Source: a virus (lineage: Duplodnaviria > Caudoviricetes). From it: a stretch of DNA of 64,000 bases. Location: the IMG/VR virus record IMGVR_UViG_3300021960_000017. One strand, given 5' to 3'. A model generated the notes under the pieces. That model was given only the letters and a program-made list of their open reading frames with translations, had not been told where the DNA came from and searched no databases. Shown here in pieces: positions 759 to 39,978 of the stretch. The first letter of the stretch is position 1; each line of letters begins with the position of its first letter. A program made the position numbers and the translations under genes.

Positions 759-1376
759 ATGAAAAATCCCTCAGAGCGCACGTGGCAAATTATTGGTGCA
801 ATTTTTTCAGACAACAGCCATGTTGATATAACAGTAAAATTTAATACTAGTCAGTTTAACTTTAACGTTGTAACAGACTTTTCATTTGAAGACTATAATG
901 TTAGATGGAACGAGCTCATGGGGGATATTTCAATTAATAGAAAAGTTCTGGCTGAGTTTAATATGCCCTATAGTATGCATGGCAATATACCATTAGAGAT
1001 ATGTCTAAATACACCAGGAAAATTAATATATTCTAATATTAAGTGTAATTATACAGTTGCTTCTGTTGATACCTACACTGATCCTAAAATAACCTTTGGA
1101 AGCTCTTGCGGGATATATGTTTCTGAAAAAAGATTTTGTACTGAATCTGATAAATACAGTGAAAACAGAATTAATGTATTTGTAGATGGATATCCAATAG
1201 AAGCTAGGGATAGGGGTTGGGAATACCATATCACAAATTTAGGTAGCCCTGGGCACCTTTCATGTAATATAAAAGTAGATAAAACATATATAACAAGATA
1301 TAGTTTGCCAGCCGTAGTAGAAAGACAATTTGACGAGTCTTATGTACACTCCTACCTAATGAGAAAAAATACATAA
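759..1376 (+). CDS. hypothetical protein
   Basis: 205-aa ORF filling the gap; TAAGTA 5 nt upstream of the ATG. Confidence 0.65.
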   Translation: MKNPSERTWQIIGAIFSDNSHVDITVKFNTSQFNFNVVTDFSFEDYNVRWNELMGDISINRKVLAEFNMPYSMHGNIPLEICLNTPGKLIYSNIKCNYTVASVDTYTDPKITFGSSCGIYVSEKRFCTESDKYSENRINVFVDGYPIEARDRGWEYHITNLGSPGHLSCNIKVDKTYITRYSLPAVVERQFDESYVHSYLMRKNT

Positions 1377-1379
1377 ATA
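1374..1379 (+). promoter_or_regulatory. T4-type late promoter (TAAATA) for the dctP-like gene
   Basis: TAAATA motif recurring upstream of many structural/late genes; AGGAG RBS follows. Confidence 0.6.
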
Positions 1380-1410
1380 CATTATATTAATATACAGGAG
1401 TCTCCATACT

Positions 1411-2355
1411 ATGACAACTCAAAAAATAGTAAAATGGGTAATTGCACACGAACCTATTCATTTGTTTCTAAGAACTGCTGAAGCATTTGCAGCAGAAATC
1501 GAAGAAACTACAAAAGGTGCATTAAAAATTGAAGTATTAACTGTACCAGAATATGTAGAAAAATACAATGATGAAGCAGTGCGTGATGCTGGCGGAACTT
1601 ATGAGTCAATTTTTGATGCATTAGATGATAATCGCATATCAATGAGCCAAACAGTAGTTTCAGCATTTGGCAAAATTAACAAAGATTTTTATGCTTTAGA
1701 TTTGCCATTCTTATTCCGTGATCATGATCATGTAAGCTCAGTTGTTGATGGGCCGATTGGTAAAATACTATGTGATAGTTTAGCAGAACGTTCAGGATTA
1801 CGTGGTCTCGCATTTACATACAGTGGCGGGTATCGTGTTATCGGTTCAAATAAGCCAATTGTTTCATTAAATGATTTACAGGATTCAACTGTGCGTGTAA
1901 ATGGTAATCCAGTAAACTTTATGACAATGCAAAACATTGGCGCACAGCCTAAAACTCATAATGAATTAGGCTATGGCTATGATGAAATTGAACAGGGTTC
2001 TCTTGATGCAGCAGAAACAACTTATTTGCGTTTCAAAGGTACTCATGTGCTTAAAACTCAGCATAGTATGTTTATGACTACTATTGCAGTCAGTAAAAAG
2101 TTTTGGAACGAACTTGATGAAACAACTCAAGAGCTATTTAAAGTTGCGGCTGCTAATGCAGCAGCAATAGAACGTAAATGGTCTATTGAAGATTGTGAAA
2201 AGTTTGAACAAGATTGTGATAAAAATGGTATTACAATCTCCAGCATGACAGATGTAGATAGAACAAATCTTAAAGCTCTAACACAGTCAGTATATGATGT
2301 TGTTGATGAATTCTTCACACCCGGATTTGTTGCCAACATTCGTAATACACACTAA
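1411..2355 (+). CDS. dctP: TRAP transporter substrate-binding protein (DctP family), no signal peptide
   Basis: FAAEIEETTKGALKIEV, DLPFLFRDHDH, GLRGLAF, DLQDSTVRV (conserved carboxylate-binding Arg), GSLDAAE, ISMSQ; N-terminus lacks a hydrophobic leader. Confidence 0.88.
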   Translation: MTTQKIVKWVIAHEPIHLFLRTAEAFAAEIEETTKGALKIEVLTVPEYVEKYNDEAVRDAGGTYESIFDALDDNRISMSQTVVSAFGKINKDFYALDLPFLFRDHDHVSSVVDGPIGKILCDSLAERSGLRGLAFTYSGGYRVIGSNKPIVSLNDLQDSTVRVNGNPVNFMTMQNIGAQPKTHNELGYGYDEIEQGSLDAAETTYLRFKGTHVLKTQHSMFMTTIAVSKKFWNELDETTQELFKVAAANAAAIERKWSIEDCEKFEQDCDKNGITISSMTDVDRTNLKALTQSVYDVVDEFFTPGFVANIRNTH

Positions 2356-2380: not shown

Positions 2381-2418
2381 AAATACCAGGAAGTTAGAAA
2401 TTAACTTCCTGGTATTTT
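2381..2418 (+). terminator. intrinsic terminator, perfect 16-bp stem
   Basis: AAATACCAGGAAGTTA-gaaat-TAACTTCCTGGTATTT followed by T. Confidence 0.85.
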
Positions 2419-2437
2419 GCTGACTACAATTTCGCAC

Positions 2438-2465
2438 TTGACAAATTTGCAAAATACTATATAAT
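2438..2465 (+). promoter_or_regulatory. sigma70-type promoter for uvsY
   Basis: TTGACA-N16-TATAAT. Confidence 0.7.
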
Positions 2466-16448: not shown

Positions 16449-17213
16449 TTATTCTAATGGTAAACGTTCTATATCTTCTTCAACACAATTGGTGCCATAT
16501 TGTATTTCAACCAGCTTAAGAGGTTTATCTGTTTCATTGGCGAGCTGATGCCACATGCCAACAGGTATATGAAGGTTTTGGTGTTTATTATAAACTCCAA
16601 ACAGTTCGTAATCACTACTTGTATTAATTGTATAAACTGTAGCAGTACCTTCTGCTACAAACCAGTGTTCAGATCGCTCTTGGTGCTTTTGCATTGATAG
16701 TTTGCTGCCTGGATCTACTGCCAGTTCTTTCAACTTTGTATGACTGCCATACTCGTGCACTACTCGATAATATCCCCATTGTCTCTGGGTTTTAGGAGCT
16801 TTCCACTCTTCTAAAATCCAACTTGAACTATTTGCTTTATTCTCGCCGCCTACACCAAATACAAACTCAACATCATCGAACACCATTTCTGGGATGTTGT
16901 CAGCAGTCCTATCACCACCGTTAACAAATACAATTTGTGCGTCAGGGTATTTATCCTTTACACGCTGTATTGCCCCAATAGCTGAGTTATCATCGTCAGG
17001 AAAGGCAACAATTTCGTCAACCACACTTAAACTTTCAACAATGGTGGAACGCTCTTGCCAGGGCATAAAACTTCTGCCTTTTTTTCTTGCTAACCATGCG
17101 TCACTGTTAACACCTATAATTAGGCGATCGCCTAACTGTCTTGCCGCTTTAAAATAACTAATATGGCCAGAATGTATGGGATCGAATCCACCAGTTGCTA
17201 AAACTATTTTCAT
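16449..17213 (-). CDS. cytidylyltransferase (RfaE-II/TagD-like) fused to a mannose-6-P isomerase-type cupin
   Basis: TGGFDPIHSGH (HxGH), NGGDR, NSSS; C-terminal RQWGYY, LSMQKHQERSEHW, WHQLAN, EEDIER. Confidence 0.9.
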   Translation of the reverse strand: MKIVLATGGFDPIHSGHISYFKAARQLGDRLIIGVNSDAWLARKKGRSFMPWQERSTIVESLSVVDEIVAFPDDDNSAIGAIQRVKDKYPDAQIVFVNGGDRTADNIPEMVFDDVEFVFGVGGENKANSSSWILEEWKAPKTQRQWGYYRVVHEYGSHTKLKELAVDPGSKLSMQKHQERSEHWFVAEGTATVYTINTSSDYELFGVYNKHQNLHIPVGMWHQLANETDKPLKLVEIQYGTNCVEEDIERLPLE

Positions 17214-39723: not shown

Positions 39724-39978
39724 ATGAAAAAGCATACCCGCAGTATATTGCAGGAGCTCAGTTTAGCAGCTCATAAGAAAGATCGTCAGCATCTTATTGA
39801 AACTCGCGGCGAGAATATTATTGAAAGTGCAATTAATATTATTGAAGAAATCTATAGAAACTACGACGCTGAAACTGCCGGCGATCTTGAGCGCAGATTT
39901 ATTAACAGTATTCGCAATCGTGACACCAAGCGTTTTATAGTGGGCATGAAGCGAGCAGACACAGATGAAAATAAATGA
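39724..39978 (+). CDS. hypothetical late protein
   Basis: 84-aa ORF after the late promoter. Confidence 0.7.
   Translation: MKKHTRSILQELSLAAHKKDRQHLIETRGENIIESAINIIEEIYRNYDAETAGDLERRFINSIRNRDTKRFIVGMKRADTDENK

Follow-up and report, generated by a model that had tools for sequence, protein, structure and literature searches.

We analysed a 64,000-nucleotide stretch of DNA (the window) from the IMG/VR virus record IMGVR_UViG_3300021960_000017 and found that its gene at 1411-2355 encodes a protein with the fold of the DctP substrate-binding proteins of the TRAP (tripartite ATP-independent periplasmic) transport systems, but with neither the signal peptide nor the lipobox that a functional TRAP receptor requires. 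The window comes from a T4-like phage and encodes UvsX (2-529), UvsY (2473-2931), ribonucleotide reductase and virion proteins, as assigned with PHROGs; the largest database contig carrying a protein identical to the 1411-2355 product is 228,546 bp long. It is well supported that this 314-amino-acid (aa) protein is not a periplasmic TRAP uptake receptor. The reading that we prefer, which we hold tentatively and rate a little short of even, is that it works in the cytoplasm during the late phase, binding or accepting an anionic metabolite.

A phage protein with a complete DctP fold and no leader

The protein matches the Pfam DctP family (PF03480, extracellular solute-binding protein family 7) at E 9.1e-41, and the match runs from position 10 to position 280 of the 286 in the profile. 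It scores above the cut-off of the NCBIfam model TRAP_S1 (NF037995; 101.6 bits, cut-off 50) and below the curated cut-off of TIGR00787 dctP (116.1 bits versus 175.05). An AlphaFold model built with 84 homologues reached a predicted local distance difference test score (pLDDT) of 95.6 and a predicted TM score (pTM) of 0.92, and places the first strand at residues 5-11 and a long spanning helix at residues 237-268. When the model was searched with Foldseek, the top matches were all TRAP binding proteins, with TM scores of 0.81-0.84 at 16-23% identity; the score was 0.84 against 8t9t, 4nq8 and 4pdd, and both the two-domain fold and the long spanning helix are present. These data indicate that 1411-2355 is a real gene and that its product is predicted to adopt a complete DctP fold.

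The N terminus of the protein, MTTQKIVKWVIAHEP, contains no hydrophobic h-region, RR motif or lipobox and enters strand 1 at residue 5, in agreement with a preliminary description of this DNA, which had reported that the protein begins directly at the first strand with no Sec or Tat leader. That description had also named an upstream in-frame start as one finding that would undo its proposal. We looked for one and found an in-frame stop codon (TGA) at 1360, followed by 16 codons before 1411 that include no ATG, GTG or TTG; therefore, no upstream start can supply a leader. The absence extends to the phage homologues. When leaders were called with a hydrophobicity rule and inspection by eye, 91 of 94 phage copies had no N-terminal hydrophobic extension, and the other three contain an internal methionine right before the conserved N-terminal motif, which indicates that their starts were over-called. 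Classic Sec-type leaders were found in 35 of the 54 copies from bacterial genome bins. As a control within the same phage loci, TctC (Bug-type) receptors and one ordinary DctP begin with typical signal peptides. Because these neighbouring genes retain their signal peptides, the absence of a leader from the family is not a gene-calling artefact: the phages encode leaders where export is wanted, and the missing leader is a selected state. We infer that, late in infection, the 314-aa protein remains in the host cell's cytoplasm.

The gene also stands apart from TRAP transport. A tblastn search of the 64 kb window with phage DctQ and DctM proteins found neither membrane component, as the preliminary description had stated for dctQM. 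Among 57 distinct viral loci, the set to which all neighbourhood counts below refer, DctQ, DctM and a leader-bearing DctP occur together in three, where they are flanked by two leaderless copies. Such a complete TRAP transporter, with a signal peptide on its DctP, lies at L127:7986-13668, and others were seen in L128, L129, L134, L135 and L155; the phages that carry it are represented by contigs of up to 244 kb and have an open reading frame of 72-88 aa between the first leaderless copy and DctQ.

It could be argued that the protein takes a non-classical route to the periplasm and there feeds a host DctQM as an ordinary TRAP receptor. Its fold is complete, the ligand-binding arginine R162 is kept (see below) and phage-encoded periplasmic receptors with leaders do exist (TctC, DctP). 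However, a Sec leader is present on the exported relatives, so this family requires one for export; in phages equipped with a DctQM and a leader-bearing DctP of their own, the family copies on either side still have no leader; residues 5-11 are the first strand of the fold and not a segment to be cleaved off; and the Bdellovibrionota copies examined are unlinked to DctQM. We regard this explanation as very improbable.

The leaderless proteins form one clade

The best 120 database homologues are 43-68% identical to the 314-aa protein, and all begin within a few residues of the W-x-x-A-H-E-P strand. Scans with family patterns identified 77 viral contigs of up to 354 kb and also recovered genome-bin contigs, for the most part of Bdellovibrionota but some of Elusimicrobiota and Polyangiaceae. 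Of the Atlas clusters, those closest to the protein are 88-100% viral. A maximum-likelihood tree of 136 proteins, rooted at the midpoint, places every leaderless row, 64 of them viral and 17 taken from genome bins, in one clade (SH-aLRT 99). This clade arises among leader-bearing rows of Bdellovibrionota, and ordinary DctPs branch farther out. With the ordinary DctPs as outgroup, the simplest account of this tree is that the leader was lost once and that the leaderless lineage then radiated in phages; because the root is the midpoint, this direction of change is inferred.

Several of the leaderless rows labelled as bacterial probably stem from misbinned phage contigs. One of them, L002 from a Polynucleobacter bin, carries a UvsY that is 76% identical to that of the window. 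Two further Polynucleobacter-bin contigs, L014 and L029, contain phage-type genes, and in L016 (Saccharibacteria bin) and L022 (Nomurabacteria bin) TctC or PP-loop genes adjoin the leaderless DctP. These five misbinned-looking contigs possibly hint at hosts through co-abundance.

The family gene of several phages is divided between two neighbouring open reading frames that encode an N-terminal half of ~160 aa and a C-terminal half of ~164 aa (L120:5980-6939, L137:5980-6931 and L124:3653-4610, and in L143 and L154 just upstream of 8001). The split point is constant, before the K-x-R-x-N-x-N-P strand, and BFVD lists the halves separately (A0A6J7WI33 and A0A6J7WKL0). Such recurrence is suggestive of a functional form made of two chains and not of gene decay.

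Among the phages in INPHARED, we found no DNA relative of the window; protein matches in that collection were at most 32% identical and were ordinary DctPs in bacterial or contaminant records, and none of its cultured phages has the family. Our literature search, in which the term 'DctP' is confounded with 'dCTP', found no description of leaderless phage DctP proteins.

Evidence for late expression

The preliminary description had credited the gene with its own TAAATA, ribosome-binding site and 16-bp terminator, and we located all three (Table 1). The late-promoter-like motif overlaps the stop codon of the upstream gene, and an AGGAG-type site occupies the same position in most of the upstream sequences of phage copies that we inspected. 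The hairpin at 2381-2417 has a predicted folding energy of -22.9 kcal/mol (z -6.82), none of 200 shuffled sequences folded as well, and UUUUG follows it; a simple terminator scan missed it because its tail has only four U. The sigma-70 promoter ahead of uvsY forms the 3' boundary of the DctP unit. A 68% identical orthologue in L161 has the same layout made of other sequences, namely AATAAATAA, AGGAG, a different hairpin with a T-run and then TTGACG-17-TATAAT.

Table 1 Positions of the DctP-like gene, its motifs, its flanking signals and related loci
Feature	Position	Strand	Details
DctP-fold protein without a leader	1411-2355	+	314 aa
Short motifs of the 1411-2355 protein			W9-x-x-A-H13-E-P15; RDHDH 103-107; FTYSGGYR 135-142; VRV 161-163; ETTYLRF 202-208; ERKWS 254-258
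T4-type late-promoter-like motif	1372-1380	+	CATAAATAC; TAAATA at 1374-1379, 37 nt before the ATG
Shine-Dalgarno sequence AGGAG	1396-1400	+	10 nt before the ATG; read from the sequence
Intrinsic terminator-like hairpin	2381-2419	+	16-bp stem, 5-nt loop, then a U-run
Sigma-70 promoter TTGACA-16 nt-TATAAT	2438-2465	+	12 of 12 consensus positions; starts uvsY (2473-2931, PHROG 231)
Upstream gene	759-1376	+	205 aa; the only neighbour common to the closest relatives, in which the gene pair recurs
Bdellovibrionota cluster examples	L003:7887-14391; L009, L018, L050 and other loci

The motif is enriched across the family. TAAATA lies 15-55 nt upstream of 48 of the 63 distinct phage copies (76%) versus 102 of 1065 other genes in the same loci (9.6%), which amounts to an odds ratio of 30 (Fisher p 1.4e-32). 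It precedes three of five major head protein genes, two of 35 PP-loop genes, five of 26 TctC genes and none of the DctQ/M genes. In the window itself, the virion-protein genes at 39724, 45189 and 48252 are also preceded by ATAAATA, at a distance of 27-37 nt. With high probability, these patterns mean that the clade is encoded by a late gene that usually heads its own unit. Late expression of 1411-2355, which the preliminary description had proposed, is backed by this family-wide enrichment and by the motif before the virion genes of the window, and we consider it likely.

TAAATA was also seen in the late-promoter position in nine of nine distinct copies of an uncharacterised protein family, cluster c10, whose members have 95-108 aa (for example, L081:6736-7029); their genes often lie two to three genes upstream of the DctP-like gene. 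The gene at 759-1376 encodes a product with 31% identity to that of the gene immediately preceding the 68% orthologue in each of L081, L082 and L161. It has no Pfam or PHROG match, and its Atlas model is poor (pLDDT 0.29) and offered nothing usable.

An altered and strongly conserved binding site

The preliminary description had reported that the carboxylate-binding arginine of the VRV motif is kept and that the usual asparagine after D-x-x-E is replaced, and both statements hold. The arginine of V-R-V is R162, which aligns with the conserved LKG-x-K-I-R-V arginine of solved DctPs, and the canonical D-x-x-E-N reads D-A-A-E-T-T-Y (E202-T203-T204-Y205), with T203 replacing the asparagine. R142 and R162 probably correspond to SiaP R127 and R147, and the asparagine of the E-N motif presumably occupies the position of SiaP N187. 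In SiaP, R147 forms a salt bridge to the substrate carboxylate (PMC4646407, PMC5812351). Across the family, 34 of 67 members without a leader and 11 of 17 with one keep arginine at the R162 position, and the partner asparagine has become threonine or serine in almost all members. Residues H13, Q80, Y137, S138, R207, E254 and R255 are invariant over 84 members and R142 is nearly so; W9, P15 and T-Y-S-G-G (136-140) are also invariant in the family.

These patterns suggest that the conserved determinants of the family differ from those of classical TRAP receptors. The invariance of residues in both phage and predator members suggests one fixed ligand or reaction centre. Because R142, R207 and R255 are conserved, an anionic ligand would fit, and the presence of several conserved arginines favours such a ligand.

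The same conservation bears on the idea that the binding-protein fold has turned into an enzyme that acts on an anionic metabolite in the cleft. Enzymes built on the periplasmic-binding-protein fold include THI5, MqnD and cyclohexadienyl dehydratase. Here, polar residues are invariant over 84 members that descend to ~30% identity to the window protein and include both leaderless and exported proteins, while the canonical ligand arginine varies, a pattern more in keeping with an active site or one fixed ligand than with a diversifying receptor. Enzymes occur among the neighbours as well (PP-loop proteins, radical S-adenosylmethionine (SAM) enzymes, short-chain dehydrogenases/reductases (SDR), a weak redoxin-like match and BKACE). 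However, the protein displays no recognisable catalytic motif, and its whole fold superposes on ordinary receptors. An enzymatic role therefore strikes us as distinctly improbable.

Importers and AsnB-like ligases near leaderless copies

In 24 of the 57 viral loci, the leaderless gene is accompanied by genes for SGGxDS PP-loop proteins, which form two families of ~350-440 aa without a Pfam match. An exported TctC is present in 18 loci, and in 12 a redoxin-like gene (a weak match) lies directly downstream. A model of one PP-loop family (pLDDT 85) gave its best matches by VIA-align to asparagine synthetase, beta-lactam synthetase and carbapenam synthetase, with Z scores of 8.2-9.4 over 230-290 residues, which are middling but consistent. 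Profile searches of the PP-loop partners against PDB (Protein Data Bank) sequences matched the SGGxDS region only, and Foldseek matches were weak. Asparagine, beta-lactam and carbapenam synthetases adenylate a substrate carboxylate. In bacterial bins, leaderless copies stand behind a major facilitator superfamily (MFS) transporter and a 201-aa protein of no known function. In these comparisons, the leaderless protein appears to recur beside importers and putative carboxylate-activating enzymes.

The gene is found among structural genes in three lineages. In the L121 type it lies between the genes for the portal and the head maturation protease, in L148 it directly follows the major head protein gene, and in L117 it directly precedes the head-tail adaptor gene.

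The PP-loop families lack a glutaminase part and are phage-dominated (L088:9989-11155, L101:533-1675 and ~40 further copies). Their genes are often repeated together with TctC and leaderless DctP, and L124 contains four PP-loop, four TctC and three to four DctP-like genes. In the window, the gene at 16449-17213 on the minus strand encodes a 253-aa protein whose N-terminal half has a PHROG match to heptose 7-phosphate kinase / heptose 1-phosphate adenylyltransferase and whose C-terminal half has a weak PHROG match to cysteine dioxygenase; copies that are 63% identical occur in seven related loci.

Exported homologues in predatory bacteria

In the neighbourhoods examined, the leader-bearing copies of Bdellovibrionota have no DctQ or DctM nearby, and DctM was undetectable in three of the five Bdellovibrionota genome bins with leader-bearing copies, bins whose completeness is unknown. 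Given that no DctQM lies near these genes and that DctM went undetected in three of the five bins, even the exported members of the family look like TRAP-independent orphan binding proteins. Their neighbours encode an AMP-binding enzyme, an MBOAT protein, a membrane-anchored protein of 349 aa and an ATP-binding cassette (ABC) importer with an NMT1-type receptor, and the set also includes a small protein with a weak, below-cut-off match to a PP-binding carrier. A layout of AMP-binding enzyme, carrier and MBOAT recalls the Dlt system, and the cluster looks like a Dlt-type envelope-modification system with a binding protein added.

Possible functions of the leaderless protein

In the reading that we prefer, the leaderless DctP would be made as its own late transcription unit and would remain in the cytoplasm, where its ligand would be a small anionic metabolite, probably one that bears a carboxylate. 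The protein would then serve as an intracellular acceptor or buffer for a solute brought in by phage-encoded or host-encoded importers, and in many relatives it may hand this solute on to the AsnB-like PP-loop ligases. The gene context of the relatives points to such a metabolic role beside carboxylate importers and AsnB-like ligases, a role that was absent from the preliminary description.

Several observations weigh against this proposal. None of the partner genes (PP-loop, TctC or DctQM) is present in the 64 kb window, and 24 of the 57 viral loci (42%) are, like the window, without PP-loop, TctC, redoxin-like and DctQM genes; the coupling to partner genes is therefore not obligatory. The DctP gene has a dedicated late promoter, whereas the PP-loop, TctC and DctQM genes mostly have none. 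This promoter and the placement in head or tail gene clusters in three lineages would suit a structural or released protein at least as well. Only about half of the clade has retained the canonical arginine, and the asparagine is replaced, so the ligand need not be a carboxylate. To our knowledge, there is no precedent for a cytoplasmic DctP that acts as an acceptor of an imported solute.

Alternatively, the protein may be associated with the virion or released at lysis, as a decoration, an adhesin, an injected internal protein or a binding protein simply freed when the cell bursts. Its site of action would then be the cell exterior or the next host, for which no signal peptide would be needed, and the secreted homologues of predators would do the same by export. 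The frequency of TAAATA before family genes is comparable to that before major head protein genes, the monocistronic unit ends in a strong terminator both in the window and in the L161 orthologue, and in the L121-type, L148 and L117 loci the gene sits among structural genes. The family is also shared by phages and bacterial predators, both of which face the Gram-negative cell envelope. However, most loci are variable metabolic islands (PP-loop, TctC, redoxin-like, PhoH), up to two full-length copies plus split copies can occur within a stretch of ~17 kb, and no feature for capsid targeting or fibre attachment is visible. We consider a virion or lysis-released protein unlikely, though far from negligible. 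As a candidate capsid-targeting signal we also looked at I-A-H-E (residues 11-14), which, as read from the sequence, does not fit the L/I-x-E rule of the T4 prohead protease and sits in strand 1, and it was dropped.

A further possibility is that the protein is a sponge that sequesters a host signalling or defence molecule in the cytoplasm. A fold that can bind small molecules with high affinity would be placed in the right compartment, and the family is widespread in phages, sometimes in several copies. The sponges known so far are small and oligomeric and are produced early in an infection, which the late promoter of 76% of the copies does not fit. Moreover, neither the 314-aa protein nor three relatives had a match in PADLOC, which covers defence systems rather than phage counter-defence; the sponge reviews and screens in the literature searched did not include a binding-protein fold; and predatory bacteria export homologues that have these invariant residues too. 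A sponge is, in our estimate, less plausible than an enzyme and quite improbable. The remaining probability belongs to explanations outside those considered here.

The preliminary description had proposed that the protein was repurposed as a cytoplasmic or virion sensor or sponge rather than a periplasmic uptake receptor. The second half of this proposal is well supported by the leaderless clade, the leaders of neighbouring receptors and the lack of DctQM near the Bdellovibrionota copies examined; of the roles in the first half, the protein may be a sensor or a virion protein, whereas a classical immune-signal sponge suits a dedicated late promoter poorly. A more pointed version of the idea is that this late phage protein is a binder on the 'wrong' side of the membrane, either a cytoplasmic acceptor for AsnB-like ligases or a particle-borne trap for the next host. 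As an acceptor, it would pull an imported carboxylate off tripartite tricarboxylate (TTT), TRAP or MFS transporters and present it to AsnB-like ligases that lack a glutaminase, perhaps as part of a modification pathway particular to the phage. Taking these two versions jointly, we give the idea a real chance but doubt it on balance.

Relation to known systems

The nearest solved proteins by sequence are TRAP solute-binding proteins (DctP, PF03480; 4p47, 4n8y, 4xfe and 4pdd), which have the same two-lobe fold and long spanning helix and share DLPFLF, RDHDH and T-x-H with the 314-aa protein; these motifs are common to ordinary DctPs and are not private to the family. In contrast to these proteins, the 314-aa protein has no signal peptide and no DctQM in its window, and reads E-T-T-Y-x-R-F instead of E-N. 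The N-terminal W-x-x-A-H-E-P segment and E-R-x-W-S on the long helix are private to the family, and the first ~60 residues were unaligned with the best solved hits. The leader-bearing orphans from Bdellovibrionota, Elusimicrobiota and Polyangiaceae bins have the same private motifs and invariant residues and form sister or outgroup rows to the phage clade; they differ in their Sec-type leaders and, in Bdellovibrionota, in the accompanying Dlt-like set and ABC importer.

Phage TctC (Bug-type) and ordinary DctP proteins are likewise borrowed solute-binding folds, often in the same variable islands, but they keep their signal peptides, are plausibly uptake receptors and mostly lack the late promoter. 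Another phage-encoded exported binding protein is the PstS of cyanophages. The periplasmic-binding-protein fold serves as an intracellular sensor or enzyme in the effector domains of LysR regulators and in THI5/NMT1, MqnA/MqnD and HisG. These belong to other branches of the fold, we saw no sequence or family relation to them, and the 314-aa protein has no attached DNA-binding or catalytic domain. The fold and family of the protein are known, and what appears to be new, judging from the comparisons made here, is its cellular location, its regulation and its conserved site.

TRAP binding proteins are textbook periplasmic receptors, yet at least 100 phage homologues appear to have lost export once, retained family-specific residues and gained late promoters of their own. 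The family is abundant in marine and freshwater viromes. Its members are routinely given the wrong label, 'TRAP-type C4-dicarboxylate transport system periplasmic component', and its genes could be miscounted as auxiliary genes for nutrient uptake. If the protein is cytoplasmic, it would represent a new role for the fold and part of an unrecognised module of large aquatic phages, composed of an importer, an intracellular binder and an AsnB-like ligase. If it is borne by the particle, it would represent a new class of virion ligand-binding protein that shares its ancestry with secreted proteins of bacterial predators.

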